A DNA stretch of 64,000 nucleotides. Origin: an uncultured Planctomycetota bacterium. Lineage in GTDB: Bacteria > Planctomycetota > Planctomycetia > Isosphaerales > Isosphaeraceae. A model generated the notes under the pieces. It did no database searches. It was not told the origin of the DNA and was given only the letters and a program-made list of their open reading frames with translations. Below, in pieces: positions 5,945 through 60,328 of this stretch. The stretch is taken from NCBI GenBank assembly GCA_963823665.1, contig CAWGMQ010000008.1, forward strand, positions 1,952,001 to 2,016,000, given 5' to 3'. The position numbers were made by a program, and so were the translations under genes. Within the stretch, counting starts at the first letter, position 1. Every line of letters starts with the position of its first letter.

Positions 5945-7285
5945 TCACGCGTGGATCGAGAAGCCCCTACGGTAGTCGCGCCTGATGAACTGGTCGGCGG
6001 ACGGGACGTTTTTGGCTTTGAGGGCGACGGGGTCCCACTCGATGGTCGTGCCGGCTTTGAGGGCGACGACACCCAGCAGGACGGTTTCGGTGAGACGGCC
6101 TGCGTAGTCGAAGTTGGACATTGCCTTCTTGGGGTCGCCGGCCTTGATGGCATTTACCCACTCGGTGAAGTGGCCCGGTGAGCGCGGGAGGGTTGGTTTG
6201 GGTTTTTCCACATCCTTGAATTTGTCTTTCGGAAGCAGGACGTGTTCGGCGCCGTAGTCGTTCTGGGAGAAGAACGAGCCCTTTTCACCGATCAAGAGCA
6301 GTCCGCTGTCGGGAACCTCGAGGCCTTGCAGGTGTTCCTTGTAGATTTTCTTGTCGTTCGGGAATTTCTCACCGCCGTCGAACCAGGTCAGGGTGAGTGG
6401 GGCGCGGCCGTTGCGCGCACCGAACCGGGTGCGGATGATCGACCAGAGCGGGTAGCTTTCGCGATCGACGATGCCGGAGGTATCGACTACTTCGATCGAC
6501 TCGGGGTCGAAGAGCTCGAGAGCCATGCAGGCTATGTTGATCGTGTGGCAGGCCATGTCGCCGAGTGCGCCTGTACCGAAATCGAGCCATCCGCGCCATT
6601 TGAACGGTTGATAACTCGCGTGGTAGGGGCGATCGGCGGCGGGGCCGAGGAATTCGTACCAGCGAACGTGGTTGGGGATTCCGTGTGTATCCTTGGGGCG
6701 GCCCATGCCTTGGGGCCAGATCGGGCGATTGGTCCAGACCAGGATTTCCTTGATCGGCCCGAGGATGCCCGAGCGGATGAGCTCGACGCCCGAGCGAAAC
6801 CCGGGCTCGACGGTGCCCTGGTTGCCCATCTGGGTGCAGAGCTTCTTTTCGGCGGCCAATGTGCGCATCAGCCGCGCTTCCTCGACCGACCAGGTGAGCG
6901 GCTTCTGGCAGAAGCAGTGTTTGCCCATGCGCATGGCCATGACACTGGCTGGAGCGTGGCTATGGTCCGGCGTGCTGACGGTGACGGCGTCGATCTTGTC
7001 TCCCAGGTCTTCGAGCATCTTGCGGTAGTCGAAGTACTTCTTCGCCTTGGGATACTTCTTCCCCATCTCGTCGAGGACTTTGCTGTCGATGTCGCAGAGG
7101 GCGACGATTTCGCCGTGAGCGCCGGCGTCGTTCGTGTCGCTGTCTCCTTTGCCGCCCACACCGATGCAAGCGAAGCGCACTTTCTCGTTCGGCGACTGCG
7201 CGGCGCTCAGTACGGGAGCACCGCCCAGGAGCAGCGAGCTGGTACCGGCCAGAGCGGATGTGCGGAAGAACTCACGACGATCCAT
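5945..7285 (-). CDS. Tat-exported Gfo/Idh/MocA family oxidoreductase
   Basis: MDRREFFR twin-arginine signal, CIGVGGKG, VSTPDHSH, CQKPL, GALGDMACH; start moved to ATG 7285. Confidence 0.93.
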   Translation of the reverse strand: MDRREFFRTSALAGTSSLLLGGAPVLSAAQSPNEKVRFACIGVGGKGDSDTNDAGAHGEIVALCDIDSKVLDEMGKKYPKAKKYFDYRKMLEDLGDKIDAVTVSTPDHSHAPASVMAMRMGKHCFCQKPLTWSVEEARLMRTLAAEKKLCTQMGNQGTVEPGFRSGVELIRSGILGPIKEILVWTNRPIWPQGMGRPKDTHGIPNHVRWYEFLGPAADRPYHASYQPFKWRGWLDFGTGALGDMACHTINIACMALELFDPESIEVVDTSGIVDRESYPLWSIIRTRFGARNGRAPLTLTWFDGGEKFPNDKKIYKEHLQGLEVPDSGLLLIGEKGSFFSQNDYGAEHVLLPKDKFKDVEKPKPTLPRSPGHFTEWVNAIKAGDPKKAMSNFDYAGRLTETVLLGVVALKAGTTIEWDPVALKAKNVPSADQFIRRDYRRGFSIHA

Positions 7286-7462
7286 GGTGGAGACTCCGAG
7301 GGCGAGTGTGGTGGGTGGGCGAGTACGGGAATCCTGGGAGGGGCCGGGGCTTGGGCGCGGAGGCACCGGTTGAGAGCCACGCAGACGCCGGCGAGGTTCC
7401 AGCGGCTCTTTCAGCATGCCGTTTCGCGGCGGCGGTTGCAACCTGTTGCTGCGAAAGTTGTC

Positions 7463-10186: not shown

Positions 10187-10387
10187 GGCAGCAACTCCTC
10201 CATGCTCATGGTGGGAAACGAGCTTTCCAAACGGGCACCATTATTCCGAGCCGCCTCGCGTCGTGCCAGAGCAGGCTTGTCCGATGGACAAGAGTACGGC
10301 AGTTCGTTAGGCTCCCTGATGCGGGGAACGAAGCAGCAGGCTGGTCGTCACGGGCCGCGGATGCGGCGCGTGAAGAAGCGTGATCCC

Positions 10388-11419
10388 ATGGCATTTTCCG
10401 ACGATCTTCGCCGCTACGGGCCGGGCACCAAGAATCGACTCTCGCGTGAGGCGTCGCTCGAGTACTGCGCGCGCCTGGCCGCAGTGCACTACGAGAATTT
10501 CAGCGTCGTGACCTGGCTGACTCCGCACGAACATCGGCCGGCCTTTCGAAGCATTTATGCATTCTGCCGATGGTCCGACGACCTGGGTGACGAGGTCGGA
10601 GACCGCCAGCGATCGCGCGAGCTGCTTTCATGGTGGCGGGACGAACTGCGGGCGATGTATCGGGGTCAAACCAGTCACCCGGTGATGATCGCTCTACGGG
10701 AGACGGTCGAGCGATACGGTATTCCGATCGAGCCGTTCGAGCGGCTGATCTCGGCGTTCGAGCAGGATCAGGAGGTCACTGAGTACGAGACTTTCGCGCA
10801 GTTGCTCGACTATTGCGAGCGGTCAGCCAATCCGGTGGGGCATCTTGTCCTGCACGTGGCCGGAGCGTTTATTCCCGAGAACGTGTGTCTGGCCGATCCG
10901 ATCTGCACGGGCTTGCAGCTCGCCAATTTCTGGCAGGATGTGGCTCGGGACCTGGCAATCGGCAGGATCTACCTGCCGCGCGAGGATCGGAACCGATTCG
11001 GCTGTTCGGAGGCCGACCTGCGAGCGGGAGTGTGTACGCCGGGGATTCGCCAGTTGATGGAGTTTGAGGTTGAGCGCGCGCGCGGGTTCTTTACCCAGGG
11101 GCGCTCCCTCGTTCGCCGGATGCCGCGCTCGCTGGCTGTCGACGTCGACCTTTTCGTGCGCGGGGGTCTGGCCATTCTTGATGCGATCGAGGCGCGAGGC
11201 TTCGACGTGCTGGGCGCGCGACCGAGTCTATCGCGCTCGACCAAGCTGCGTTTGATTGCGCGGGCGGCCGCGGTGCAGGGAGTGAATACAGTCGCGCAGA
11301 CGTTGCTGCGTGCCCGCCCGAGGCTGGGCAGAAGCGGCGGCGATCGTGACACGCGGGATCGCGATCTTCAATCGCGCTCGAAGATGGTGCCGCAGTCGAG
11401 CACGGAGGAATCGCGGTGA
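10388..11419 (+). CDS. hpnC: Squalene synthase HpnC
   Basis: HYENFSV, YAFCRWSDDLGDE, YCERSANPVG, LQLANFWQDV..RIYLP; start is ATG 10388, not 6242. Confidence 0.92.
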   Translation: MAFSDDLRRYGPGTKNRLSREASLEYCARLAAVHYENFSVVTWLTPHEHRPAFRSIYAFCRWSDDLGDEVGDRQRSRELLSWWRDELRAMYRGQTSHPVMIALRETVERYGIPIEPFERLISAFEQDQEVTEYETFAQLLDYCERSANPVGHLVLHVAGAFIPENVCLADPICTGLQLANFWQDVARDLAIGRIYLPREDRNRFGCSEADLRAGVCTPGIRQLMEFEVERARGFFTQGRSLVRRMPRSLAVDVDLFVRGGLAILDAIEARGFDVLGARPSLSRSTKLRLIARAAAVQGVNTVAQTLLRARPRLGRSGGDRDTRDRDLQSRSKMVPQSSTEESR

Positions 11420-24345: not shown

Positions 24346-24401
24346 GGATTTGCACGAACGCGTCGTCACAGCTTGGCGCTGGCGAGTTTTGTGGGGTTGA
24401 C

Positions 24402-27400
24402 TAGTGCCCCGTCGAATCTAAATCTTGGGGTTGCCAAGAGCGTCGGTTTTGGAGAACTTCCGCAGTTACAAGGAGGTTCCCATGAACAAAAAGTATATTG
24501 TTCGGCTCACGGACGAGGAACGCGCAATCTGCGAAGTGACGGTCAAGAACGAGAAAGGTAAGTCGGAGAAACTGCGGAGAGCGGTGATCTTGCTCAAGGC
24601 GGACATGGACGGTCCGGGTTGGAATGACGAGAAGATCAGCGAGGCCGTGGGCTGTCGAATTCGGACCGTGGAGAACGTGCGTCGGGAGTTCGTTCTGGAA
24701 GGCTTCGAGGCCGCCCTGGTGCGCAAGAAACGGACGACGTCTCCCACTCCCAAGTTGCTGGACGGAGCCGCCGAGGCGAAACTGATCGCCCTGCGGTTGG
24801 GGAAGCCGCCAGTCGGCTATGGCCATTGGACGCTACGATTGCTCGCCGACCAACTGGTGGAACTGGAGATCGTGGAATCCATCAGTCCCGAAACGGTCCG
24901 GCAGACACTCAAAAAAACGGCGTGGTTCAAAAAGGGCCTTTTTCGGGTATCAGTACGAACCTTCGACGGGCCTTGACGGGCAAGGTTCTCGGTGGCTCGC
25001 CAGGGGACGACTACGTCATCCGCGGGCAAAGAGCGTGTAGCCGAGCATCTCTAGCCAGTGCGGGTGAGGCTGGCCAGTTAATAGCTCGGCGGGTGTCTTC
25101 CCCACACGCGCAGGGCGATGGCTGCGCTCCAACCGTCGATGGTTTAGGTAGAACTGCAGTAGGGCCAAGTAGTCCGAGCCCAAGTGTCAGCGGAGGAAAA
25201 AGTAGCTTCGGAGGCGACTATTGAGGTTCTCCACCAACGAACTAGCCCTGACCGTCTCTTCCGCCAGCGCGTTTACTGCAATCTGAACCACATGGAACCG
25301 GCCCTGCAGCTTTTCTCGCGCAACTGCTTCCTCAGCCCAGCGCCGTGGATCGCGCTCGTCGCGCGACAGCGTCTTGAGCAGGCGTCGTCCTAGTTCCGTG
25401 GGAATCTGCAACTCCTGCCCTAATTGCTCCAGATTCTCATCGAGCCGGCGTGCGAAGGCGAGTAGGTCATCGCGTTGATTTTGCAAAACGCGGCAGATGG
25501 GCTCCAGCCGATGGGGGCATTTCGAGGCGCGAGCCTTCAGCTCGGCCACCACAAAGTCGTACAGTTCGCAACGGTCGGTGTAAGACGGGCCGGCGACCGC
25601 GAAAATGTCGTGACGAAGCCAGCCGACCAACAATGTGACGTCCTCGGCCAGTGCCACCGCTTCATCACTGGCACTGCGGGCTCGACGCAGACGCTGCGCC
25701 GGGCCGGCCGTGCGCTGACTTGCCGCGCCGGCGCTTAGTCGGTCGCCGCAGACGCTCGCGCTTTCGATCGCATTGTTCGGTGGTCTCGAAAGTGTCGTAC
25801 GCGCGGTTCTCCAGGAAGCTGGCCACGACATTCAGGTCGCGGACCATATGGAAAATATCACCTCGGCAGGGGACATTCGGGAGAGCCAGAGCTTGGCCGG
25901 CGCGGAGCCTGCTACCCGCGTCGGCCACGGTTGCTTCGGGATTGAAGCCCTGATCGACTAATTCGAGCAGGCGGACGCCCCAGGTGTCGGCATCGCGATG
26001 TTCTTCCGGGCTAAGCAAGTAGCAATAGGTGGACGCGGGGTCGATGCCCACGAGCACTGGGTCGCCAGCCTGGAAGATCTCATCGTGGGCACCGATGCGC
26101 ACGCCGCCAAGATGGTAACCGCGGCTGATCGCTCGAGCCGCCTCAACTGCGCTGCGCACGATATTGTGCACCGTGCCCAGTGAGTTATGCCAGTTAAAGA
26201 GGTCGCGAAAGAGCTCGACGACAGCCCGATATGGGGCATGGCCAACCAACACCAGTGCAAGGACCAATTGACGCAACCACGCCTTGGTGACGGGGAGGTA
26301 AAAGAGAACATCCTCGTCCTTCGGTTCAGGTTTGAAGGCATGGGTCAGCGCCGCGCGGGCAGTGTCGGCCTGCTGATAGAGGAAATTGCGGCTAACCTCA
26401 TGCTGTTGGGCCAACTCCGCGACCGGTTGAGCCCCGGCGAGCACTTGTACAGCCAGCTCCTGCCGTTCCTGGGGCAGCAAACCTCTGGGCGGGCCAGAAA
26501 GGCGGGCTGGGCAGTTCCGCAGCCGGGCCGACATCGGATTGCGGGAATGAGCACGAGAACGTAGCTTGGGCGTCCATGCCTGTTTCCTTTGTGATGGTGT
26601 GGGTTTGATACTCCCGACGCCAACATGGAGGAAACAGGCATTTTAGAAAACCCCACCTTACTCAGCCTTGTGTTACCTCACTCTGAACCAGGCCAAAAAG
26701 TGGCATGACCAAGCGAAAGATCGAGTATTGGGTGATCCCTCCCGATGCAAACGGCGAGTTCGTCGCGCACATGGAGGAGGTGCTGGAGACCTACGAAAAA
26801 GCCCACGATCCCGACTGCCCGGTGGTATGCATGGACGAGCAGCCCGTGCAACTGATTGGCGAGACGCGCGTGCCGATTCCCGCGACCAAAGAGCACCCCA
26901 AGCGCGTCGACTACGAATACGAACGCAAGGGGACGGCAAGCATCTTCATGTTCGCCGAACCGCTGTCAGGCTTCCGGCAAGCGACGGCGCGACCGCACCG
27001 CACCAAAGACGATTGGGCTCACGAAGTCGCCCAATTACTCGACACTCGGTACGCGAATACGCCGCGAATCACGCTGGTCTGCGACAACCTGAACACGTAT
27101 ACGAAAGGGGCGTTCTACGAAGCGTTCCCTCCCGAGAAAGCCCGCGAGTACGTGCGACGGATCAACTTCGTCTACACCCCCAAGCACGGCAGTTGGCTCA
27201 ACGTGGCGGAATGCGAACTGAGTTGCATGGCCAGCCAATGCCTGTCCGACCGCCGTATCGGCGACATCGTGACGCTGCAATCGGAAATAGCCGCCTGGGC
27301 CGCTCGAACAAACATCAAGCAACGGGCCGTCGACTGGCAATTTACTATCGAGAAGGCACGCATCAAACTGAAGCGGCTTTACCCGAAAATTTAGATTGGA

Positions 27401-27410
27401 CGAGGCACTA
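24402..27410 (+). mobile_element. IS630-family element interrupted by a nested element
   Basis: TIRs TAGTGCCCCGTCGAATCTAAAT / ATTTAGATTGGACGAGGCACTA with TA ends; orfA HTH 24482-~24920 ends at an A7 slip site; orfB 26705..27394 (CMDE, VCDNL, WLNVAE). Confidence 0.92.
24923..26690 (-). mobile_element. Unclassified IS with degenerate DDE transposase (25016-26577) carrying a C/D-xx-H motif
   Basis: Ends TGGTTCA/TGAACCA; motifs HDEIF, VADAG, GDIFH, SSLVENLNS; premature TGA at 25187 and frameshifts. Confidence 0.72.
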
Positions 27411-27443
27411 GGCTGGTGGGAATAAGAAGGTTTCTATCGAGGG

Positions 27444-27670
27444 TTATACATCGTCCGACTCACAGATTACGAGCGAGACGAGCTTCTCGACGACGTCAAG
27501 AAACTGAAGAAAAGCAGTGAAGATAATAGTGCGTCTGGCTCTGATCTTGGCCGAGGCAGACGTCGACGGAGCCGAACTGGCTGGATCGGCAATTAGCCGA
27601 TGCTGTTTCTTTTAGCTTGCGGACGGTGAAAACGCGCGACGGCGTTTTGTTGAGCACGGCTTCGAAAAGA
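27444..27670 (+). pseudogene. Decayed second IS630 orfA fragment
   Basis: Piecewise translation YIVRLTDYERDEL..ALILAEADVDG..RRRFVEHGFE, similar to orfA at 24482. Confidence 0.6.
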
Positions 27671-27728
27671 TGCCGAACAGAGCCAAGCGTGCAACCGTTG
27701 ACCGGGAGTTTCTCGGCGGAGACCAAAC

Positions 27729-30669
27729 TGAAATGGTTCTGCGTGAAACGGAGTTTCTCGGCACCGGAGAAGCACCAGGAGCGAAGGATTGCCGCGCTTC
27801 AGGACAAGCTTCAGCGCAAGAACGAGGTCGTGGCCGAGTTGTTGGAGGAGCACGTGAAGCTAAAAAAAGTACTTGGGAAACTCTGACTGGAGCCTGGCTT
27901 CCCCATGACATTCGCGACCAGGTCGTCGACTACGTTCGCTATTGGTCAGACCGGACGGAGACCCCGACCAAGCAGCTCGTCCAATGGATCGGCCTCAGCC
28001 AGAGCAAGTTCTATGACTGGCGGAAGCGCTACGGCAAAGCGAACGAGCATAACGGCTGGATTCCCCGCGATTGGTGGCTCGAAGACTGGGAAAAGCAGGC
28101 CATCGCTGAGTTTCACGACCAAAACCCGCTTGAGGGTTACCGGCGTCTCACCTTCATGATGCTCGATGCCGATGTGGTGGCAGCTAGCCCCTCGAGCGCC
28201 TACCGAGTACTCAGCGACGCTGGACTGATGAAGCGGCATAACACCAAAGCGTCCCTCAAAGGAACCGGCTTTCAGCAACCACTCGGTCCGCACGAGCACT
28301 GGCACGTCAACATTGCCTACATCAATGTTCGGGGGACTTTCTTCTTTCGCCTCCTCAGCAGAATCTGTGGGTAAATTCTGGCTCAGGCAGGGCGCCAAGG
28401 CTGTGATACAAGGCGTTTTTCACTGCATCGAACGTCCGAAAACCGTACGCCTTTCTCGTCGTCAATTTCACCTTGTTGTTCAGGCCCTCTGCAATGCCTG
28501 CGGAAATCGTCCCACGGGCCTTGAACCAATTCAGGATCAATTCTTCATGGCTGCGAAGCCTTCGAGCCACTTTCTTCATTGGCTCGATCTTTGATCGCAT
28601 CGTCCTGGTGCACCACTCGTGCAGAAATCGACTCGCCCAGCCGTGATATTGGTAAGTCCAGAAACGCTGAAAATCCTCCCGCAAAAGATAGCTTCTCACG
28701 GACTTTAGGTTGTACTGCACCAGTTCGGCCAATCTCACGGTCTGCTTCTTTGTTAGGTTCTCCGGCCGCTTCAGCAGGCACCATCGCGCCCGTTTCAGGA
28801 CTGGCTCGTAGCCATCTCGCTTCAGCCGGCGCGCTTCCTCGGCACGTACTTCGTCGATCGCCTTATTCATCGCTTGCATGATGTGAAAGCGGTCGAGCAC
28901 GTGGATCGCGCCAGAAACCTCTTGGGCCAGCACGTTGAGGTACGGTTTCCACATATCGCTGCATAGATAGCGGATCGAGTTCTTGGTCTCGTCGGTTATG
29001 GTTTGGAAAAAGCCACGCAGGCTTTCCTCCGTCCGGTCCAACCCAATCCAGAGCAACCGCCTGAACCCAGCGTCAATCTGGTAAACCAGCGTCAGGTAAT
29101 GATGGCCCCTTTGCCACTGCACTTCGTCTACAGCGATGGCCTTGATTCCGGTCATCGTCCGTCTCGCCAAGCCCCATGCGACTGCATACTCGACCGAGCG
29201 GTACACAGTTTCCCAGGTAGTATGGAATATCAAGGCGACTTCCAGCCACGAGAGCCGCTTGGCCCAACCGGCTAGAAACCATCGGTAGGCCGTAGTCACC
29301 GGGCTCTTGCCGTCACTCCACGGGACCTCTTCGACGATCACACCGCACTTCGGGCAGTCAACGCGCCTCATTGCGTAGACAAAGAACACAGCGATCTGCC
29401 AGAGCGGCACGAACTCGAACCTTCGTACAGGTAGTTGATCATACCCGGCTCGCTTACGGTGGCACCCGGAGCAAACAGCTCGGCTGTTGCGGCGGGCTTC
29501 AATTTCTACCTCCAAGGCAAGTTGCTTTCCTTTCGAGACCAAACTTACCTTGCCGTACACGAAGGACTTTTGCGGTGCAATGCGATTGAGGATAGTCTTG
29601 AGGAGCATCGTGTGGGGCCTCTCGATTGGGATGGTCTTGGTAACCCTTCCCTAACCGACGGCCGCGCACGATGCACTACCCTACCTTCTTCAAAAAAACC
29701 TTTCTCAAGAACGAGTCCGCGAAGAGCTATTTAAAACTGAACCATCAAATGTGAACTTCGCCTACCCCTCCCGCCTTCACCTTCGCTTCGCCCTCAACCT
29801 AGCAGGGCGGACCGAATGTGAAGGTGGGAGGGAGAACCCTCCTGTCGAGCCCGAGCCGAGCTGCTGCATCGTTTTTCAACCCACAAATTCTGCCGAAGAC
29901 CCCTTCTTTCTTTGCAGCTTGCTCGATGGTTACAGCCGATCGATCGTGCACTGGGAAATCCGCCCGAAAATGGAAGAAAGCGCCGTCGAGACGATCTTCC
30001 AGAGAGCACGTGAGTGCTATCCGGGTGTCTCTCCCCGGATCATCAGTGACAATGGTCCACAGTTCATTGCTCGAGAATTCAATGATATAAGTTACATATG
30101 TTGTATTATACATGTTCCAACTTCGCCTTACTATCTCCAAAGCAATGGCAAGATCGAGCGATGGCATCGTTCGATCAAATCGGAGTGCATCCGTCCTCGC
30201 ACACCACTTTCAGTGGACGATGCCGTTCGCCTAATTGACGGCTATTTCCGGCACTACAATGAGGCGCGGCTCCACCGTGCGATCGACTATGTAACTCCGG
30301 TGGACAAGATGTGCGGTCGCGACAAGCAGATCTTCGCTGACCGAGATCGTAAGCTCGACGAAGCAAGGAGCCGCCGGCAGGCGGTTTGTGTCCAGCAGCG
30401 TCAAGCTGGTTGACGTGATTTGGGAGCAGTTGTTAATGCCAGCGCGTGGACTTACGATGGCCAGTGGCCCGGGGCGGAGGATAGGGCTCCGTGGCGACAT
30501 GACCTGAGCGCCGTCCCAGGGACCAAGACCGAGGAAGGGCGGCAGGAAGCCGCCCCGCATTCCACCTACGGGATTGGTACCAAAGCGCTAAATCGCTCTT
30601 GCTCGCTTTTTTCTCAACCACTACCTAACGCCGCAAACCGGAAACTCCATTTCACGCTGAACCATTACA
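27729..30669 (+). mobile_element. IS3-family element (orfA mostly deleted, orfB split by ISL3)
   Basis: ~29-bp TIRs TG(A/T)AATGGTTC(T/A)GCGTGAAA; A7G slip site near 27862; orfB GYRRLT..HEHWH / ISDNGPQF..SNGKIER. Confidence 0.88.
28349..29902 (-). mobile_element. ISL3-family element, transposase 28355..29608 apparently intact
   Basis: 8-bp target duplication CTTCTTTC (28341-28348, 29903-29910); imperfect TIRs; CSGC/CPKC finger, VDE, SDMW, DRFH, EGLNNKVK..AYGFR. Confidence 0.95.
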
Positions 30670-32748
30670 TGGTTTGGAGAGCTGCGGCACGAGGGTAAAG
30701 TCGTACGTGTCGAAGTCCCGCAAGAGCGGGAACTTTGCATTCCTGATCCGTGTCGCGATCGCATCGGCAGCCCGCGTCGCCAGCTCGGTCTCAGTCAGAC
30801 CGAGCAGGAACTGGAAGAAGCTCTGATTGTTCGCGGTCGCATCCCGTGCCAGCCTCTCGAACTCACGGCCCATCGTCGGCAGCCGCAACTGCCGGAAATG
30901 CGCCTGGAGCAAGTCGATCACTGCATCCGCCATCGGCATGGTCTATCCCAAGGAAATGTCGAAGAACGGTTCGAACTCGCCAATCGAGTCCGAGACGCAT
31001 CGGGAACACTCCGTCAGGTGAAAAACATGGTGACCCGTCTCTCAGCAGAAGCCTCGGCGGCCACGACAACTCCTGGGTCATCGGGTTTTCCGTAGTACGC
31101 CGAACCATCGAGGAGTTGATTGAAACAGCTCAATTCAGGGAGTGGCACTTGAATTTGTGGTGCCGTAGTCAGCTCAGTCGTCCACGGTGGCGAACGACGC
31201 GGCTGTGCTTCATGAACTGCCTGAGTGAGCGTTTGCTGAATCACAGATTCGGCGCTGATCAGTTGGCGCATCCGCAAGTCTCAATCGCCTGACGTATGCG
31301 GGTAATAGGGTGGTCGACCAGAAGCTGCAGCACTCGCACGTAGCGTCGTGCGCCAGCTATGGCGCCATGATTATTCCTCAAGCTCCGCGCGGTACGCGGC
31401 GAAGCATCCTGGGAGCTTCCATTCCCGGTACACCGGAGCATCCTCAAGGGCCCCCGGTTTGCGGTCCAGAGTCGCAAGATAGTGCAATGGGTCATGGACC
31501 ATTGTGTGCGGCTGTAAACAGCGCGTGTGCGTGGCGATGACTTGACCGCCGGACACAAACACGACGCGGTCCACATAGCCCTTGATGGTCACCATCTGGA
31601 AGGCGGAGCGTCTGGGAACGCCGTAACGATTACGCTCGAACGCGATGGTTTGATATTTATCCAGAGGGGCGGCGGGGAGGATCACACACGGATCGAACCG
31701 GTGTTTCGGAAGCGGGGCCACCGAGGCTTCTTCCTCAGAGAAGCGAGCGCCGATCACAAACAGACCAAACATCGACCGAACAGTCCGCTCCCGTTCGGCC
31801 TCACAGCGCTGATGAAAGTACCGGTTCAATTCGTCGAGGTCGTTTACGCGCGGGACCGGAGTCGAGAACCGACGTTGCACAGCCCGTACGGTGCGCTCGG
31901 CGTCGGGCTTCTCATTACCCCAAGCGGGCATGCAGAAGAGAGGCTTGAAAGCGTAGCGGCTGGCCAGCGCCGCATATCGAGGATGAAGCTTGCGTTCGCG
32001 ACCGAGAAGAATCGTGGTGCCGCCGGTCTTCGGGTTGTCCAACCAAACCTCCTCGGGAATACAGCCAAAAAACTCGAAGGCTCTGACCATGCCTTCGAGG
32101 ATCGCCTCAGTTCGCTCAAAGGGAACTGCCAGAACAAACGGGTAATTGGAATAAGCCTAGGTGGTCATCAGGAATGGAACGAGCTTACGTCAGTCAGGAA
32201 AATCAACGTGAATATGGCCGAAATCGGCTTCAAGCCGCTGGCCTGGAGGATGTCCCAGCGGAATGAAGGATTCTTTCTCTCGCCGGCGATTCTTGAACAG
32301 GTAGCATTGCACCTGGGCGTGGCCGCCGCAGTAGCCGTGCTCGTCGCGGTGGCGACAGCGCACTTGAGCGGCGCATGCCGCTGATTTGGCGGCGCGGACT
32401 CGTCGTCTCGAAGGATCTGGTCAACGATCGCAAAGAAAGGTCCCAGGACAGGTACGATTCGGTTCCTCACCTGGGGAATCGGATTGCGCTCGGGGTTCGC
32501 CAGTACCTTGCGGATCGTGTTGCGCGAGTGTTCAAACTCACGAGCGATCTGTTTGATAGAGACCCCATTGCGATGGGCTCTGCGGATGTCACCATAATCG
32601 TCCACCGTAAGCTTTCATTTACCTCCATGCATGGCGAGCGTTCCTTGATGAAACGTTCACTGTACAGGAGGCGCTTATGGGGGTCGTTCTTAGACGATCA
32701 AATTGCCCGGAAAGGGGTCACTTTTTAGAAGATCACTGCCAGGCGACA
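30670..32748 (-). mobile_element. Degenerate IS21-family element (istA frameshifted, istB truncated by IS3)
   Basis: istA HTH start, DNPK, GNEK; istB QLRLPTM..AKFP..DFD; TG terminus at 32748 with two subterminal repeats. Confidence 0.85.
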
Positions 32749-33163
32749 GGAAACTCAGAGTAGTCGTCCCCGGTTCATTGCTCTTGGGAATTCACAGACG
32801 CGCGCGTACGATGTTTGGTCAAGAGGGTGATTCTGACATAATGGAGGTGATTCGCCTTCGACTTCATCGCGTCGCGAGAGGTGGCAACGTCATCGAGCCC
32901 GGCGGTGCTCCGGTAATAATTAATAGCTCCGACCCAGATTCGACAATGAACAAAGCCGGAGCCAGAACCTCGTACGGGACCCGAATCCGCAAACACGCTG
33001 CCCACCACATCGACTGACGGTGTGGAACGAGAAGAGCGGGCGATCACACCAAGCGAGGACTGTCCCGTGTCACACTGACAGTTTCGTCGCAGAAAACTCT
33101 TGTTCTAATCTACGGATCGGGGTTCAGTGACGCACACGCGTTATCTACGTTGAGTCCAGAATC

Positions 33164-34342
33164 GTGGGGTATCGAGTGGATGATGAGTTAACACTCCCGG
33201 GTGTAATCGGCTGCAGTGCAGCCTTGCGCGAGGTCATTCGAATCACGCGTCAGGTATCACCATCGCGAGCCTGTGTGTTGATCATTGGCGAGACGGGAAC
33301 AGGTAAGGAACTAATAGCTCGAGCCATTCATGATCTGAGTCCACGGGCAACGGGACCGTACATCAGGGTAAATTGCGGCGCTTTAACAGAGAGCCTACTC
33401 GAAAGCGAGTTGTTCGGCCACGTCAAGGGCTCGTTCACTGGAGCAGTGGATAATCGCACTGGTCGGTTTGAGGCTGCGCACGCCGGCAGCATCTTTCTCG
33501 ACGAGATCAACAGTACGTCACCCAAGCTGCAGGTCAAACTCCTTCGTATCTTACAAGAAGGAGAATTCGAGCGGGTAGGCGACAACAATACTAAAAAGGT
33601 TGACACCCGAATCATTGCTGCTACCAATCGCGATCTCCTTGATGAGATCGAAGCCGATCGCTTTCGCGAAGATCTCTTTTACCGCCTTAACGTGGTGCCA
33701 ATCTACCTGCCGCCGTTGCGCGAGCGGCGCGAAGATATTGAACCACTAGTCTTGTTCTTTCTCGAACGCTATGCCGAACAAAATCAACGCACAATGCGGC
33801 GTGTTCACACGAGTGCCATGCGCCTCTTGCGTGAGCACGATTGGCCAGGGAACGTCCGTGAGTTACAGAACTACGTTGAACGGGCTGTTATTCTTGGTAC
33901 GGGACCCGAGTTAAGCGTTGAGCACTTGCCGCCACAACTTCGAGGACAACCTGTGCCACGACCGGTCCGTCCTAGGGTAGGAGGAGCTGATTTCACGGTC
34001 CTTTGCGCGGCACTTGTTCGCCAGGGTATCATTACCGCCGGACCAGGCGCCAATGACTTGTACGACCGCATTGTGGGACAGGTTGAACGCGAATTGATAC
34101 AACAGGTTCTTCAAAACTGTGACCGCGTGCAGATCAAAACCGCCTCAAGACTAGGCATTAACCGCAACACTTTGCATAAAAAGCTCTCCGAGTATCGACT
34201 GGACGAAAGTGGATTTCGGGCTACGGGTGACACTGCTAATCCATCTGGCACTAAGCAGCCAAACGGCGATATCGACGACACAGCCTCTAATGAAAGTGCC
34301 GAGAACGTCAGTGACTCTCCGCCATATGCCCGGTCAATCTAA
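33164..34342 (+). CDS. Sigma-54-dependent activator (AAA+ plus Fis HTH) without a sensor domain
   Basis: GETGTGKE, ESELFGHVKGSFTGA, FLDEI, FREDLFYRLNV, WPGNVREL, LGINRNTL. Confidence 0.93.
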   Translation: MGYRVDDELTLPGVIGCSAALREVIRITRQVSPSRACVLIIGETGTGKELIARAIHDLSPRATGPYIRVNCGALTESLLESELFGHVKGSFTGAVDNRTGRFEAAHAGSIFLDEINSTSPKLQVKLLRILQEGEFERVGDNNTKKVDTRIIAATNRDLLDEIEADRFREDLFYRLNVVPIYLPPLRERREDIEPLVLFFLERYAEQNQRTMRRVHTSAMRLLREHDWPGNVRELQNYVERAVILGTGPELSVEHLPPQLRGQPVPRPVRPRVGGADFTVLCAALVRQGIITAGPGANDLYDRIVGQVERELIQQVLQNCDRVQIKTASRLGINRNTLHKKLSEYRLDESGFRATGDTANPSGTKQPNGDIDDTASNESAENVSDSPPYARSI

Positions 34343-34623
34343 CCCGACTTTTGTAGGCAAGAATCACGAGACGGACCATGTAGTAGCTACCCTGAACTCC
34401 GTGTTCAGAGGCGAGAGCTTGGTAAACGCGCTCACGGCTACGAAATTCACCGGCGTGATTGAAGAGCCACCACCGGTGGCATCCGGGACTACGATAAATA
34501 GTCCTTGCAAGCGTGATCAGCGACAATTATGATTCCCCAGCGTAGCGCCACTGCGAACGCGCGTTTGGCCTGCCGTCTCGTTCGCGCTGTCGCGCAAGCT
34601 AACACTAACACCGGAGGCTCGAG

Positions 34624-35019
34624 ATGATCAGCCTCCCTCATTCCATCCGAGTGTTCCTCCACGCTCCAGCCTCAGATCTCCGTAAGGGCTTCGATGCGCT
34701 TTCTGGTCTAGTAACCACCGCCTTTTGCCAGGATTCGACATCCGGCCATCTGTTCTTGTTCGTTAATCGACGCCGCGACCGCCTCAAGATCCTCCACTGG
34801 GATCGCGACGGTCTGGCGATCTGGTACAAGCGACTCGAGACCGGCTCATTCGAGCTTCCTGCGGTCACCCGCGATGCTGTGTCGATCGAAATGAGTTCTA
34901 CCCAATTGACACTGATTCTCTCCGGTATCGACCTACGCTCTGCCCGGCAACGTAAGCGGTACCAGCGTCCCAAACCAGAAGCTGAAACTTGGCCGGTCAC
35001 CTCTTATAACGTTGAATGA
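34624..35019 (+). CDS. tnpB: IS66 accessory protein TnpB
   Basis: DLRKGFDAL, LFLFVNRRRDRLKILHWD..G..WYKRLE.G.F. Confidence 0.9.
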   Translation: MISLPHSIRVFLHAPASDLRKGFDALSGLVTTAFCQDSTSGHLFLFVNRRRDRLKILHWDRDGLAIWYKRLETGSFELPAVTRDAVSIEMSSTQLTLILSGIDLRSARQRKRYQRPKPEAETWPVTSYNVE

Positions 35020-35766
35020 TCATGATATCATCTATATGACGATTACTCCAAAGTCATGGCCGACTGATCCTCGCGAGTGTCACGACCTGCTGAACCGGCT
35101 CGCTCAGCAGGTCGAAGACCTCCAAGCCGCGCTCGATGAAGCTGCGAAACTCCACAATCAGATCGTCCAGAGCACGAACAGTCCCTGGAAGAATTGCGTC
35201 GCCAGATCGAACTCTACCGTTGCTACGTCTTCGGACCACGGCGGGAACGGCTGGTTGATGCCCCGGGCAAGGCCACCTCTTCCAGTTCGAAATGGCCGAG
35301 AGTGTCGCTTTACCTCCCGAACCGGCACAGCCGCAGGCGTCGGCATGCCCACGCCGATCACGTGAGCTAGACGACGACGGGCGACGCGCGATGCGTCAAG
35401 CAGAGGCGGTGCCGATTCTAGAGCGGCTCCGGCAGGAACTGGATCGACTGTCGATCAGATTGCTACCGAAGTCGGGTTTGGCCCAAGCGGTGACGTATGC
35501 GTTGAACCAATGGCGGGCATTGTGTCATTACACAGAGGACGGCCGTTTAACGATCGACAACAACGTATCGGAACGTCGGCTTCGCGATCAGGCAATTGGC
35601 CGCAAGAACTGGATGTTCCTGGGGAGCGTCGAGGCGGGACCCCGAGCGGCCGTGCCGTGCACGATCATCGCAGGAGCGAAGCGGCATCGGCTCGACGCTC
35701 CCCAGGAACATCCGGTTCTTGCGGTTATGTTGAGCTGACGAAGAGAATTGTATCCGAGGTGCTTAC
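35012..35766 (+). pseudogene. IS66 transposase TnpC remnant with large internal deletion
   Basis: LPKSGLAQAVTYALNQW..IDNNVSER..GRKNWMF; probable TTAC end at 35766. Confidence 0.8.
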
Positions 35767-36142
35767 GCACGCGATCGGCGATCCAAACGGCCGTCGCGGC
35801 AATTTGGGTACAATTCGTTGAGCTGAGCCGCGCGGCATGGCGGAGTTATGGAGTTTCAATCGGCGGTATCTCGCGTCGGAGTGGGATGACGAGGCGAAGA
35901 ACCTGCCGAATCCAGTGCCGTGTTGTCGAAAGATACGGATTGCCTGGCATGTTTTCGGCCTGTTCTCGTCGCCGCGGCAGAACGGTTCGCCGTCATCTTA
36001 CTAATACGACGAGGAATCCTCGTCCCACTGCGAGGAGTGGTTTCCTTTTAGGCCTGTCTTGGTCTTACCTCCTGGTCTTTGACACTCATATCATACTGAC
36101 TTCGAATTCTAATCGTTATGCAAATACCCCTGATCCGCACAA

Positions 36143-38498
36143 TGTCACCGGGCGCTTCAAAACCAGCCAATTATGGGCGCTTATCGGTAGTTCAAAACCA
36201 GCCACCCCGTTCGGGTAGTTACATTGGTCAATTCAATACAGCTCTACGGTAATCACGACTGACTGAGAACTTGCTTTGCTTGGCCGAATCGGTCTTTGAC
36301 TTTTCCGGCGGAGCCGAATTGGCTCCTCATTTTAACGCTTCGTTGTGGTCTTGCCTCCTCCCTTTCCGCTGGCGTTGGAGCCAGATGGCGCCTTGGCTGG
36401 TTTTGAATCTGGTGGGTTCTCTTCCGACCCGGAGGGCGCTTTGGCTGGTTTTGAATTCGAACCACCATGCTCAGAGCCGGAGGGCGCTTTGGCTGGTTTT
36501 GAATCTTCAAACCCGTTTCCGCCCGAAGCCGATTGGTGCCGCAGGCGGTAACTTCGGCCCTCCAATCGCACGAGCTCGGCATGATGCAGGAATCGATCCA
36601 AGATCGCCGTGGCACTCGGCACATCCCCGAGAAGCTTTCCCCAATCCTCGAGCGGACGGTTCGATGTCATCATCGTTGACCGTGTCTCATACCGCCGCAT
36701 CACGACCTCGAAGAGACATTCACCGGAACGCCTCGGCAATTGCTTCATTCCCATGTCGTCGATGATCAACAACTCGGGCTTCAGGTACATCGTCAGCATC
36801 TTGTCCTCCTGCCCCAACACCTGATCATGCAGGAAGTCCCGGACCAGGTCGAAGACCGAGCGGTAAAGAACCGTGTAACCGGCCTTGACGGCTTGATACC
36901 CGATCGCTTGTACGAGATGGCTCTTTCCGAGGCCGGGCGGTCCCAGCCAGAGCACGTCGCGCCCTTCGCGGAGGAACCGACAGCTCGCCAAGTCGTACAC
37001 CTGCTTGCGGGGGATCGACGGGTTGAACGACCAGTCGAAGTCTTCCAACGACTTCCGCTCGCGAAACTCAGCCGCTTTGAACCGTCGCTGGAATTGGCGA
37101 TCGGCTCGCACCGCCAGCTCGTCTTGAAGGATCAGCTCAAGGAACTCGCTGTGGCTGAGGCCGTGGCCAGCGGCCTCCTGTAGGCGAATCTCCAGGCTCT
37201 CCAAGAGTCCGGAGAGCCGTAGTTGCCTCAATACATTTCTCAGTGGTTCATTCATGGAGAAAACTCCTGGTGTGGTGTGGAAAATGTCGTGCTCGATCTC
37301 GATCGCCGATCACAGAATCAAAATGTCATCTCCGTCCCTCCCGCCTTCGCCATCGCCTCGCCCTCACTTGAACTGGGCGAGGCGATGGCGAAGGTGGGAG
37401 GGAGCATCCCTCTTGCCGAGCCGGAGCTGAGCCCCGTCCCCTCTTTTTCGCCGGAAACTCGGTAGCCACTGCAACGTTGTTTGCACCGTGACCGGCGGAG
37501 GTCTGCCAAGTCGATTCAGGCACTCCCGCTCAAAGCAACTCTGATTCATGAGTTGTTCCCCTCGTATCGAGATTGGAATGCGTCGCGGACAAACTGGCCA
37601 TATTCACTCATTGGTCGGATCATAGGATGCTCGCTCATGAATGGCAGCAACTCTTGCTTGGGTCCCTGGCGCTTCAGGAGCGCACGGATTGTCCGGAGGC
37701 GATACTCGCCGTAACCGTGCGCAATTTCGCAAGCGTGATCGATTGCCGAGGCGAGATGCCGGCTGGAAAGGTTCAAAAGGCCGATCAACACTCGCACTCC
37801 CTCGACTCCGCGGGCTCGGATCATCGCCTCTGCCCAAGCGGTGCTCTTGAGTCCCAGCCGAGTGGTCACTCTGCGCAGAAGCCAGGCTGCCCCTTTCTCG
37901 ACCCCGCTGATCTTATTGGGGTGAATCAGTTCAGGCGGTGTGCTGAAACGACCTGGTTCCTTCCTGAGATGCACGGCGATCTTCTCCATCCGATCGTTGT
38001 AGATCGACACCAGGCGGCTGTCCCAGCGCACCCAGACGTCCCGGTCCCGGTATTCCGGCGGCACCGCATAGTAGGCCCGCTTGACCTCAACATGGCCATC
38101 GCGGTGGACAGTGCGGCGGCCCTCGTGGAACGACGGGAATAGACCCAATGGCAACGGTACCAGTGCCTCGCGCTCGACCTCGGCGAAATGCTTGCCGACC
38201 TGGCGACGGGTGGTGCCATGGATCCGGGTGTCAGCGACGGTCAGCTCCCAGTTCAGTAGGAAAGCATTCTGCTCCTCCAGGCTGGGGAATCGCCGTGCCT
38301 TGAGAGCGTTGCTCTGGACGTAGTCGACGCTTTTTTCGACCTTTCCCTTGTGCCGAGGTGTCCGGGGTCGCGTGGGCCAGAAGACAAAGCCGTAGTGCTC
38401 TCCGAAGGAGCGGACCTTGGGATTGAGCTCGGGATCAAACCAGTCGGCCTTCGTCACGGCGGCCTTCAGGTTATCCTGAACCAACCGTCTCGGTACGC
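36143..38498 (-). mobile_element. IS21-family element: intact istB (36332..37255), istA (37546-~38490) 5'-truncated by IS3
   Basis: istB GPPGLGKS, IIDD, TSNR, AILDRFLH; istA DNLKAAV, PRHKGKVE; TG end at 36143 with TTCAAAACCAGCCA x2. Confidence 0.92.
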
Positions 38499-40126
38499 TG
38501 TCTTGGTTCACCGTGAAATGGAATTTCGTCCGATTGGCGTAAATGAATGGGGAACGGCATCGTGGCCTGGATGTCGCGGCATCGTGCCGCGAAGGTTTGT
38601 CGCATTGGTGCCAATCCCGGAGCTGTCGTGCTGCGATCGAGGAGAGAGCGCAGAGCCGAGGTATGCTCGGCTCTGGCTCCGGTCTTGGCCCCTGGCTCGG
38701 CGCTCGGGGTGCTCCTCAGCAGTGCCCTATCCTCCGCCCAGGTCAACATCGTTTGTAGCTCGTCCGCGATCTTCACGCAACCTCTTGTGACCCGTGTCTA
38801 ACTGTTGCTCGACGCTCGCGCGCCTCCTCCAGCTTGCGGTCACGCTCAGCGAAGATTTCTTTTTCCAGCCCGATCAACTTGTCGGCTGGGGTCAAATAAC
38901 CTAACGCGCTATGCAACCGTATATTATTGTAGTGATCCACATATGATGCAATGTGACGTAGAGCCTCATCGAACGAAGACACCGCCGCTGGCCGTACGCA
39001 CTCGCGTTTCAAACTGCCGTGCCAGCGCTCAAGTTTTCCGTTCGATTGCGGATAATACGGGCTCGTCCGAACGTGCGTTATGCCCGTCAGCCGGATGAAT
39101 TCCTTGAAATCCCGGGCAATGAACTGCGGGCCATTGTCACTGATGATCCGTGGCTTTTCTCCTGGATGCCGCTCCAACGCCCGCTGGATGATTGTCTCGA
39201 CTTCGCGCTCGGTCATGCTCTCACGAATCTCCCAGTGCACAATGTATCGGCTGCAACCGTCCAGCACGCTCGTCAGGTAGTAAAACGTCCCCGAGACGTT
39301 GATGTAAGAGATGTCCACATGCCAGTGTTCATGAGGCACCAGTGGTTGCACGAAGCCGGTTCCCTTCTTCGACGGTGAGAACCGCCTGCGATCGAGCCGG
39401 TTCGCTTGCTTGAGCACGCGATAGACGCTCGCTGGGCTGACGGCCACCACGTCGTCGTCGAGCATCATGAAGGTCAAGCGGCGATATCCTTCGAGAGGAT
39501 GGCGATCGTGAAAATCGACGATGGCTCGTTTTTCCCAGTCCTCGAGCCACCAATCGCGCGGGACCTTGCCGTTGTGCTCGTTGACTTTGCCGTAACGGTG
39601 CTTCCAGTCGTGGAACTTACTTGTGCCCAGGCCGAGCCAACTCAGGAGCTGACGAGCCGGAAGCTCCGTGCGGTCGACCCAATGCTTGACGTAGTCGACG
39701 ACCTGGTCACGCGTGTCGTGGGGAACCCAGGCTCCGTTCAGAGTTCCCCAAGTTCTTTTTTTAGCTGGACGTGCTCCTGCATCAGCTCGGCGATGACCTC
39801 GTTCTTCTTGACGAGACTGGATTGGAGCCGCTCGACGAGCTTCGCTTGAAGCCGCTCTGCGCGGGGCGGACGGCCTGCTGCGCGCTCCAAAGCATGCTCG
39901 GCCTGGTCGAGTACCTGCTTAATCCAGTTGTGGATCTGGCTGGGTTGAAGGCCGAACTCATCGGCCAAGTTGGAAACAGGCTCTTTGCCACTGATATGGC
40001 GACGGACGATTTGAGCCTTTTGCGGCGCTGAGAAATGCCGGCGCGACTGTCTCATGGAACTCACCTCCGATAGGGTTAATTATAACCCAACCGGCGCGAC
40101 ATTCTATTTTCAGGTGAGGCAGGACA
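38499..40126 (-). mobile_element. Complete IS3-family element (orfA 39738..40064, orfB to 38773 via -1 frameshift)
   Basis: TG..CA ends with imperfect TIRs; AAAAAAAG slip site; WHVDI, ISDNGPQF, SNGKLER; no target duplication. Confidence 0.93.
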
Positions 40127-40948
40127 CCCTCGCCTCCAGCGTCCCCTGCTTTGCCCACTCAGTCGACGACAGGTTGCTCGAATGATCTACCATGCCGTCC
40201 GTCGGCACCCCAACAGGCCCAGATACGTCAGCGACGAATGCTCATAGCCAACACAGCACACGAAATCATCGAGCGTGTCTGCGGGGTTCGCACACGACGG
40301 GGGGCCGGCCCGGGGTGGATTGTTGTTGAAAGCCTCTCCGTTCCCCACCTGGAGGTAACTCACATGGTTCTCTTTGAGGACTGTCTGAACGAGCGCGGCC
40401 GTCGCCCCGACTGACAGCTTGAGTACCGGCGCTTGCGGGATGCCCGAGTCGGCGATCCGTTCGATGTCCGCGTACGCGTGCGGCAGCACGCCCTGCTCGT
40501 TGAAGACGCGAAATGCCCGCCACCAAAGATTGCTAAGCCCCGAGCGGCTGTATTTTCCCTCCAGTAAGAATATGCACCGGGTTTCGAATCAAGACAACGA
40601 AAGCATCCCAACAAAGTGCAATCACTCAATTGACATGGCTGCAACGCCAGGAGTTACGGCCTTGCACGATTTCTTTGTTAATCGTGAACACGCGGCTGAT
40701 CCGATCCCCATCGGAAAGATCCCGGCAAGGCTTGCCCTGGGTCCACGGACGCTCGAACCTGAGCCCGCGGCTCCGGCCAATCGCGACGACCTGTTCGGAT
40801 CGGGTGTTCGATGGGAAGTGACCTGCATTCGGCGTGATGGACAGGGAACGTCCAGCCCACCCTCGAGCGAACCCGGCCGTCGCGCCGGGCCGTTCGAGCG
40901 GCCGATTCCTTGAAGAGCGGGCTCGCGTCGACCCGAGTCTCTGACCCA

Positions 40949-40987
40949 GAATCCGAAGGTTGTAGGTTCGAATCCTACCTGGCGCAC
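40949..40987 (+). other. 3' half of a tRNA (probably Arg), att-site fragment, not a full tRNA gene
   Basis: AATCCGA-AGGTT-GTAGG-TTCGAAT-CCTAC-CTGGCGC-A; no D-arm or 5' acceptor strand upstream. Confidence 0.85.
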
Positions 40988-41090
40988 TTCCTGACTCCCC
41001 CCGTCCAGAAGCGTCAAATCGCGTCCAGAGCCGTCTTTTCCAAGGATTAGTGACACTTGGGGAGTCGAACCGTCCGATACAGCCATCGTG

Positions 41091-41450
41091 TCAGGATGCG
41101 ACACAAAAACGACGCGAAACATCTCCTGCTCGCTGACAGAGCGCTATCACGTCGGGACGGGTCGGCGTCGCAGGGTCGGTACCCGTCGCGGACAAAGCCT
41201 CTGATTGCTTGCATGTGAACGGATCGAGGAGATTTTCCACCGTCGAGGCGATGTCGGCCAGGCGGGCATGGGCGTAAACCCCGAACGTCAAGACGAGCGC
41301 GCTATGCCGCGCCAACTCTTGAGCGCTCTTGACCGTGGCGCCGATCGCCACAACGTTCGACACGAATGTGTGTCGTAGGCTGTGAAGGTCGATCACCCCC
41401 GAGGCGGTCTCTTGTTCGATCCCCGCCATTCTCAGGTCGCGATAGAGCAT
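41091..41450 (-). pseudogene. Tyrosine integrase C-terminal remnant
   Basis: DLHSLRHTF..ARHS..VYAH catalytic boxes; transcribed toward the tRNA fragment. Confidence 0.85.
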
Positions 41451-56700: not shown

Positions 56701-56711
56701 AGGGATACCCC

Positions 56712-60278: not shown

Positions 60279-60328
60279 GCAATCACTTCCCCCGCCAAAC
60301 TCCGCGCTTTTGAGCAGGCACTTCGTCA

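Follow-up and report, generated by a model that had tools for sequence, protein, structure and literature searches.

Two IS3 elements with a structured 3' end

The window analysed here is a 64,000-nucleotide (nt) stretch from an uncultured Planctomycetota bacterium of the Isosphaeraceae (assembly GCA_963823665.1, contig CAWGMQ010000008.1, positions 1,952,001 to 2,016,000), in which two insertion sequences (ISs) of the IS3 family carry, between the orfB stop codon and the right inverted repeat, related copies of a structured, putatively RNA-encoding cassette (Table 1). The surroundings of both copies are an IS-rich island, and at window 24400-41450 IS630, ISL3, IS66, two IS21 and two IS3 pieces are nested around a sigma-54 activator gene. 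IS3 copy 2, which is intact and hosts RNA copy 2, is inserted in the istA gene of an IS21 and encodes an OrfB that matches rve/rve_3; six near-identical copies of it are found in its genome (G000). IS3 copy 1 represents a second IS3 lineage, with an OrfB about 69% identical to that of copy 2, and is mutated and split by an ISL3 and a short insert, with its N-terminal part at about 27617-28374. This short insert is hairpin-rich and occupies window 29740-29890, between the ISL3 element and the resumed orfB. No target-site duplication was seen at nine of nine intact copies of two elements of this IS3 clade (window 38499-40126, L001-L006 and L035-L037); IS3 elements usually generate target repeats of 3-4 bp.

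Table 1. Features of the two IS3 elements and their RNA copies, in window coordinates.
Feature	Position	Strand	Basis
Intact IS3-family element (copy 2, 1628 bp) that hosts RNA copy 2	38499..40126	-	ends read from sequence; scores above the cut-off of IS3 model NF033516
orfA of copy 2, with a frameshift-type A-run signal at its end	39738..40055	-	HTH_Tnp_1 match; sequence
orfB of copy 2	38773..39741	-	protein matches
Predicted sigma-70-type promoter, RNA copy 2 (-35 TTGCGT, 17 nt, -10 TACAAA)	38752..38780	-	inferred; family-wide positional enrichment
Conserved core, RNA copy 2 (P1, P2, purine-rich internal loop, P3, C-loop-type 3x1 loop, P4 with purine tetraloop)	38691..38744	-	covariation
P5a, variable guide segment, RNA copy 2	38676..38689	-	guide/site comparison
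P7 hairpin, RNA copy 2 (terminator-like in the family; no U tract here)	38651..38675	-	folding, terminator scans
Site of copy 2 (P5b as guide complement, 6-nt spacer, conserved GCGnnAAA tail)	38594..38623	-	sequence, family alignment
Two short 3-nt-loop hairpins past the tail of copy 2, REP-like	38556..38592	-	sequence
Right inverted repeat, IS3 copy 2	38499..38523	-	sequence
C-terminal orfB remnant, IS3 copy 1	29900..30413	+	protein matches
Predicted promoter, RNA copy 1 (-35 TTGTTA, 17 nt, -10 TACGAT)	30430..30458	+	inferred from sequence
Conserved core (P1-P4), RNA copy 1, with decay mismatches	30466..30521	+	sequence vs family
Guide P5a and P7 hairpin, RNA copy 1	30522..30555	+	folding, sequence
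Site of copy 1 (P5b and tail)	30569..30595	+	sequence
Right inverted repeat, IS3 copy 1; element interrupts IS21 istB	30645..30669	+	sequence

An initial annotation had pointed to sequence blocks shared by the two elements in the roughly 260 nt between orfB and the element end, and these blocks are present where it placed them, in intervals of 256 nt for copy 1 (30413-30669) and 274 nt for copy 2 (38773-38499). The four paired differences that it listed as compensatory were all found in the sequence, while the GA/GA internal loop that it described is kept within this IS3 clade but not family-wide. Its blocks were right, but the element continues beyond the end assigned to it, as far as a conserved tail (30583-30595 and 38594-38605). 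On the orfB strand a two-stem fold is common to both copies (z-scores of -1.5 and -2.2, against +0.45 and -1.0 on the opposite strand); on their own the two folds are only modest evidence, and it is the family that confirms the structure. Strict single-site scans for promoters and terminators made no call in either window copy, and in copy 2 the predicted -35 box TTGCGT overlaps the orfB stop.

Conserved core, guide and site

Relatives were collected both by protein and by pattern. Searching with OrfB gave at least 564 relatives, of which 80 loci were kept; together with the genome's own loci these yielded 72 distinct 3' ends, 38 with the motif, and two loci scored automatically as type A (L098 and L103) were removed after inspection. 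Pattern scans added at least 120 metagenome loci, as well as 3, and later 8, viral loci. In an alignment of 92 copies (18 rows chosen by protein, 74 by motif pattern), 94.1% of the cells in the paired segments P1-P4 pair, compared with 78.7% after shuffling and 29-47% after sliding, and the pairing of P3 and P4 exceeds 99.5%. Because the motif pattern fixes some letters, the count was repeated on the rows picked by OrfB protein (29 usable of 32), where 288 of 290 core cells are paired. On the OrfB tree the P4 pairs changed 7/7/7, 7/7/7 and 6/6/7 times (left side/right side/pair), and in the two pairs with seven changes each, both sides always changed together. Moreover, the seemingly invariant column pair 11-50 becomes A-U, G-C and U-A under a relaxed pattern. 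The structure is strand-specific: G-U pairs outnumber A-C mismatches by 32 to 1 on the motif strand, which folds better than the opposite strand in 45 of 56 cases.

The selected, structured and non-coding element that was first proposed from two copies is thus borne out by the family, since covariation in the larger alignment of homologous right ends is strong and strand-specific, no coding frame accounts for the conservation, and Rfam 15 gave no match in the window, to copy 2 (searched up to E 10) or to any of 20 loci of types A, B and C (variants of the IS3 3' end described below). A protein-coding open reading frame (ORF) is ruled out by frame lengths (core-to-tail length modulo 3 of 35/29/26), by closed frames (no forward frame is open in more than 41 of 90 copies), by the scarcity of usable start codons (21 of 90) and by the lack of any third-position excess of change in the motif.

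The internal loop between P3 and P4 reads CAA/A or CUC/A in 100 of 110 rows, which we take to be the C-loop pattern, and the letters of the internal loops and the tail are nearly invariant. A pistol-like alternative pairing of the core was rejected, since it agrees with CUC but not with CAA, the commoner of the two variants (60 of 110 rows). The invariant GCG of the tail could plausibly pair with the right strand of the core loop, and in type B the corresponding match is five of six; this pairing is beyond the reach of covariation because both sides are invariant. At L321 (1501-1669) the P4 loop holds a 29-nt palindromic insert, the rest of the core being intact.

The cassette is built of two modules, the first comprising a promoter, the conserved core, a variable guide of about 16 nt and a terminator-like hairpin, P7, and the second being a site composed of the guide complement, 6 nt and a GCGnnAAA tail, often with a 3-nt-loop hairpin. 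The core-to-P7 stretch is tightly sized (median 16 nt, standard deviation 3.4) and the P7-to-tail stretch is loose (7-150 nt, standard deviation 16), while the tail lies 6 nt from the last paired base of P5b in 92 of 130 copies and 5-7 nt from it in 122. P5, the helix of guide and complement, pairs at 69.5% on a sequence-only alignment; in terms of arm energy (n=112), cognate pairs reach -18.0 kcal/mol against -8.2 for non-cognate pairs, compared with -9.4 against -5.1 for P1. Past the tail, 59 of 97 hairpins have 3-nt loops and only one has a GNRA loop; this position holds a G-rich hairpin in other lineages and the two REP-like (repetitive extragenic palindrome-like) hairpins in window copy 2.

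By strict scoring the site lies downstream in cis in 114 of 156 copies, and in more when weaker second matches are admitted. At 16 loci with eight guide types, hand-picked from the site scan with L126 added to make up the number, the unit of P5b and tail is not, or not only, downstream: at 15 it stands upstream on the opposite strand, and at L228 it keeps the same strand but precedes the -35 box, an order that resembles a circular permutation of the cassette. The cognate guide outscores every other-lineage site in 12 of these 16 displaced loci, and its energy is better than the other-lineage mean in all 16, a comparison somewhat in favour of the cognate in that the site was taken as the best local tail motif. 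One IS3 lineage has cis and split forms with the same guide, in which the site strand is constant relative to the transposase and the RNA gene is flipped. Displaced sites show no selected promoter of their own, with bottom-strand TANNNT at 5 of 15 against 33 of 116 controls and top-strand TANNNT at 13 of 15; a bidirectional promoter giving two RNAs in split forms is not favoured, as bottom-strand -10 boxes are not in excess. Because of the displaced but matched sites, the 5' half behaves as a gene of free orientation and the 3' half as a cis-acting site. In addition, L237 and L259 have a site on both sides, an IS21-derived miniature element keeps the site without the core, and of the copies with full flanks five lack a site that scores over the cut-off, which one of them narrowly misses.

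Of 124 copies whose upstream DNA is distinct, 81 have a TANNNT -10 box that starts 17-24 nt before the core, where six control windows gave 3-12, and TTG stands 16-19 nt 5' of that box in 34 of the 81, against 7 in controls. The cassette is thus predicted to have its own promoter at a fixed distance, as an independent small-RNA gene should. Those copies linked to AAA_25 helicases that were inspected by eye had no -10 box and may be co-transcribed. Downstream of P7, at least five T occur within 8 nt in 36 of 147 copies (1.1% of 881 control hairpins) and at least four in 57 (6.6% of the controls), while the mirror test, at least five A before P7, gave 2 of 147. For a type B copy (G132), only contigs of DNA-laden RNA libraries were obtained; in three libraries these were long and the depth over the neighbouring gene was flat, and a fourth gave nothing.

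Host elements and exchange among relatives

Leaving aside the protein-picked set, 125 distinct copies were classified by host. Of these, 66 sit at the 3' end of IS genes (IS3 32, IS21 14, IS110 10, IS481/IS1202-like 5, IS256 4 and ISL3 1), the IS3-hosted copies being 17 sense and 15 convergent, and a further seven are on the 5' flank of IS110 or ISL3 genes. As for the others, eight follow AAA_25 helicases, three follow ExeA-type ATPases, one follows a DUF1670 gene, one precedes Rep_1, one has a group II intron inserted, four (L118, L120, L130 and L224) have an adjacent or inserted element as the nearest match, and 34 have no assignable neighbour, 19 of these with short flanks. Further hosts are two ISNCY-like elements, one IS481-like element and one relaxase neighbour. 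Most IS-borne copies are antisense to the transposase, and in several lineages the terminal repeats of the IS lie between the promoter and outside DNA. Besides IS3, the cassette occurs inside IS21, IS110, IS256, IS481/ISNCY and ISL3 elements, as well as downstream of replicative-helicase genes and on a rolling-circle plasmid, and is thus not IS3-specific.

Every IS host that could be assigned comes from a circle-forming family or a close relative of one; such families include, in the accessible part of one report, IS1, IS3, IS21, IS30, IS256, IS110/IS1111, ISLre2, ISL3 and IS1202 (10.1101/2023.06.07.543989). No cut-and-paste element was found as a host among the neighbours examined. An IS1182 is inserted into the downstream hairpin of L120, and the IS5 neighbours of L224, L141 and L401 and the IS701 by L253 lie beyond the end of the host element as read from the sequence. 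The DDE_1 matches at L120, L140, L141 and L224 are the inserted element, elements past the host end or reverse-strand frames. An IS66 about 350 nt upstream of L321, its boundary not mapped, stands next to a cassette whose convergent neighbour is an IS3. For comparison, five genomes hold at least 367 DDE_Tnp_1 matches against 18 strong IstB matches; because the hosts are related, the host skew is given as a bias and not as a p-value.

The plasmid HG796808.1 (2376 bp) encodes Rep_1 and one other ORF, without a transposase, and its cassette runs from promoter, core and terminator-like P7 through a long spacer to the site. In HG796808.1, the cassette is on the rep strand and its site about 95 nt upstream of CTTGATA, the part of such a plasmid where single-strand origins (sso) usually lie. 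In the accessible text of PMC10378824, CTTGATA is the Rep_1 nick site and TAGCGA/T the CS-6 box of sso, a box that the tail matches at five of six letters in many copies. G-rich hairpin matches in the plasmid and phage collections searched came without the core.

Within genomes, all 14 copies in G000 and all 18 in G506 lie in IS3 elements or their end remnants. The spread is patchy, with 12 of 400 genomes of the phylum positive by the exact pattern, and 9 of 100 in the class and 8 of 41 in family f34 by the model; Tautonia sociabilis GM2012 (L032) is a carrier available in culture. Some f34 copies stand between host genes with no transposase nearby; in one f34 lineage (L319, L320, L322-L328) type A copies are mostly so placed, several being followed by an ISL3-like end, and these copies are possibly non-autonomous remnants or domesticated. 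Other placements were also noted: at L191 (1153-1296) the cassette lies between istA and istB of an IS21, antisense to both; at L401 (about 1480-1780) a 16-nt direct repeat flanks a cassette with no transposase of its own; and at L119, L127, L136, L158, L210, L211, L221 and L226 the RNA is 3' of an AAA_25 helicase gene ending in short tandem repeats.

Among close IS3 relatives the slot behind orfB is variable. A tree of 60 OrfB proteins has type A in 32 rows (including one deleted remnant and one cut off), a short end in 13, type B in five, type C in five and other ends in five, and three type C rows are nested in a well-supported type A clade. The cassette is therefore optional and exchangeable among IS3 relatives, and the IS3-specific reading of the initial annotation did not survive, given that 13 of the 60 have a short end without the element and others carry different RNAs in its slot. 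Type B (L068, L072, L082, L092, L109, L113, L114 and L314-L318) differs from type A in its internal loop and tail but has the 23-nt P3/C-loop/P4 module in common with it, and its promoter, core, stem, hairpin, tail and downstream hairpin follow one another as in type A; its covariation is 93.5% against 76.4% in 10 sequences, and viral scans for it gave 11 matches that appeared chance-like on inspection. Type C, folded only as single sequences, lies just past orfB residue 303 in the same slot at L045, L046, L056, L093 and L090. It overlaps there with an extension of orfB by read-through and, in an element present in several copies, takes the place of type A. Moreover, L108, L106, L098 and L111 in this IS3 clade have long, hairpin-rich 3' ends matching none of types A-C.

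Elsewhere in the window, a tRNA-like stretch was seen by eye near 40910-40990; it was not called by ARAGORN, which found no tRNA in the 64 kb. A frame of 1745 codons at 6182-11416 has a C-terminal squalene/phytoene synthase domain as its sole Pfam match and is followed by a second synthase gene and then an amine-oxidase-type gene, and at 56601-64000 two open frames of more than 1100 codons have no Pfam match at E 1e-5.

Possible functions and relation to known systems

The reading put first here, tentatively and as a possibility short of probable, is that a guide-like RNA docks on single-stranded DNA of the element and helps to prime second-strand synthesis. The two-part cassette appears to have been acquired many times by mobile elements with circular or single-stranded intermediates. 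Host RNA polymerase would make an RNA of about 90 nt, or a read-through form, and its guide would pair with the site when the DNA strand that bears the site is unpaired, for example after displacement in a copy-out IS circle or a rolling-circle plasmid. The core might then dock on the tail and bind a host protein, and the complex would prime the second strand or recruit priming, acting as an RNA-supplied single-strand origin or as a ColE1-like R-loop primer. Circles would then form more efficiently, to the advantage of the element, and the patchy spread would follow from the cassette being optional. Priming is ranked first because it alone joins the host bias, the position on the plasmid, the promoterless movable site, the terminator before the site and the 3-nt-loop hairpins.

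Several points weigh against priming. Every functional step in it, expression included, is deduced from sequence, and it has no protein partner. Fewer than four T follow P7 in 90 of 147 copies, both window copies included, and without a U tract the guide would pair in cis with its own transcript, so that a continuous RNA fold fits equally well. The strand of the site varies, being transposase-antisense in most lineages and sense in this clade, L253 and L258, and such sense-strand sites could be RNA; at L121, in contrast to HG796808.1, site and rep gene are on opposite strands. The base rate for hosts was taken from five genomes, all of one phylum, and the host lineages are interdependent, while the neighbour library was without IS1, IS30, IS6, IS91, IS200/605, IS1380 and Tn3, none of which turned up in general family scans of the neighbours. 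Moreover, the plasmid and phage collections searched gave one free plasmid and no credible phage.

The prevalence of downstream cis sites, which lets one transcript fold whole, also suits a core acting on site-bearing transcripts, whether as a new ribozyme with permuted and two-piece forms or by stopping, stabilising or put-like antitermination, and in this way controlling transposase or rep transcripts or insulating small circles. We hold this to be unlikely, though it would account for the permutation-like L228, for the tight spacing of 5-7 nt between guide and tail, and for internal loops and a tail as invariant as those of a catalytic or binding pocket. Like put elements, which are promoter-proximal with two adjacent stems, the cassette is close to its promoter and has two such stems, and the antisense placement of most IS-borne copies agrees with control of transposase transcripts. 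However, no Rfam ribozyme model, taken as the test for a known catalytic core consensus, was matched, the site strand has no selected promoter in opposite-strand forms, a terminator-like hairpin often separates guide and site, and RNA acting on RNA does not by itself explain the absence from cut-and-paste families. Alternatively, the cassette might be cargo: its core would sequester a host protein, be it a silencer, a ribosomal protein or an anti-plasmid defence, from which the element would gain, and P5 and tail would be no more than part of the fold. Its own promoter, its use of either orientation, its patchy distribution (9 of 100 genomes of the class) and the 23-nt C-loop/tetraloop module shared by types A and B, which like type C are exchanged among IS3 relatives, would all be compatible with such a decoy. 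The module also has the same layout as a region of the 16S genes of related genomes, presumably helix 15, a likeness judged by eye only in a motif class that recurs in many RNAs (no 16S gene was obtained from G000 itself). Decoy RNA is clearly unlikely, as it leaves unexplained a guide-matched site kept after its move upstream or to the other strand, and CsrA/Rsm binding needs GGA, which is not kept in all P4 loops.

Priming, which we continue to favour, shares the plasmid position and the CS-6 likeness with a purely single-stranded DNA structure, in which an sso- or single-strand initiation (ssi)-type signal would use the -10 box as a single-stranded DNA promoter and no stable RNA would be made. 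DNA tolerates G-T pairs, and motifs of this sort are hard to distinguish from RNA according to the accessible text of PMC5737381, but TTG at the -35 spacing (34 of 81 against 7) points to a double-stranded promoter, U tracts follow P7, and opposite-strand forms cannot fold from one DNA strand, which makes a DNA-only signal improbable. The initial annotation had left the choice between RNA and single-stranded DNA; RNA is now favoured for the 5' half because of the positioned promoter, the G-U bias, the C-loop-type loop and the terminator-like hairpin. It had also likened the element to an IS-encoded partner such as the IS110 bridge RNA or the IS200/605 omega RNA, a comparison that is not supported, the same element being found in at least six IS families and a transposase-free plasmid. 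Even though 32 of 60 related IS3 rows carry the RNA and one frame is open through the motif in both window copies, either a guide- or bridge-like partner of the IS3 transposase or a small protein is very improbable: the element goes with unrelated transposases and with none, 13 of 60 relatives are without any insert, and there is no conserved frame, start codon or codon pattern. The host distribution rejects an IS3-specific partner.

With bridge and omega RNAs the cassette shares a structured RNA in a non-coding IS end and a segment that covaries with a distant site, but it has no dedicated protein and is common to unrelated families. Its guide matches a site inside the element, not a target or donor junction, its internal loops are nearly invariant where bridge-RNA loops vary, and only 13 of 125 copies lie beside IS110, to whose family (with IS1111) bridge RNAs are confined; in those hosts it is an extra element on the opposite strand. 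No TnpB, IscB or HNH nuclease, to which omega RNA and HEARO are linked, was found among the scanned neighbours. RNA-OUT of IS10 and art200 of IS200 are cis-antisense RNAs over the start; like them the cassette has an IS-internal promoter and would give a small RNA mostly on the strand opposite the transposase, but its place is behind the stop codon, several lineages have it in sense orientation, and its core is the same in many families. A CsrB/Rsm sponge, which has repeated GGA in hairpin loops, is not indicated, with some P4 loops lacking GGA and only one conserved hairpin loop. With the ColE1 RNA II primer the cassette has in common a promoter and a folded RNA followed by an A-rich spot and often a G-rich stretch, pointing to an origin or through an element; but it measures about 130 nt against about 550, shows no antisense partner like RNA I, is IS-borne and has a site separable from the RNA gene. 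With ssoA/GEBRO, as far as the accessible text of PMC5737381 describes it, the cassette shares its placement in a Rep_1 plasmid, where it is a structured element of the rep strand that precedes the nick site, a CS-6-like tail and a proposed role in second-strand priming; it differs in its double-stranded-type promoter, its terminator-like hairpin, its movable guide and site, its location mostly in ISs and its lack of any Rfam match (the presence of GEBRO in Rfam was not checked separately). Finally, the mobile or repeat candidates of the Breaker laboratory are, in the accessible part of PMC11109978, likewise covarying, multi-copy, beside transposases and inconsistent in orientation, but the cassette moves with its host IS and not alone; it may be among the 250 unnamed candidates there.

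No description of the cassette was found in the literature searched, in the accessible parts of its texts, and an unnamed listing in the supplements of PMC5737381 or PMC11109978 is possible. The main text of 10.64898/2026.10.21.760802, in its accessible part, has no mention of IS3, and the database may hold the cassette as an unnamed cluster; neither the searched supplement files of PMC8632094 and PMC8040213 nor the accessible passages of PMC9208149 and PMC8944449 contain the motif or a description of it, respectively. Going by its sequences, this is a real and abundant structured RNA cassette of mobile elements, with a modular guide and site design that fits no system known to us. Stated in full, the proposal would be a new class of small guide-like RNAs with at least two variants around one core module, in which a reprogrammable segment of 14-16 nt pairs with a cognate single-stranded DNA site by a fixed motif and supplies or recruits a second-strand primer, which copy-out ISs, rolling-circle plasmids and helicase-bearing elements have recruited repeatedly, and which relies on host proteins only and could be retargeted; that whole is rather unlikely to hold.

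Each known IS-encoded RNA goes with a single family and a single protein, whereas this cassette spans at least six mechanistically different IS families and a plasmid. To our knowledge, how the second strand of copy-out transposon circles is primed has not been settled, and host restart proteins have been implicated in it; the cassette offers a concrete, deletable element for this question. With naturally split and permuted forms in which guide and site still match, it is also a candidate programmable RNA, and if it should be a ribozyme, an antiterminator or a decoy instead, it would still be an abundant RNA class without an Rfam model.

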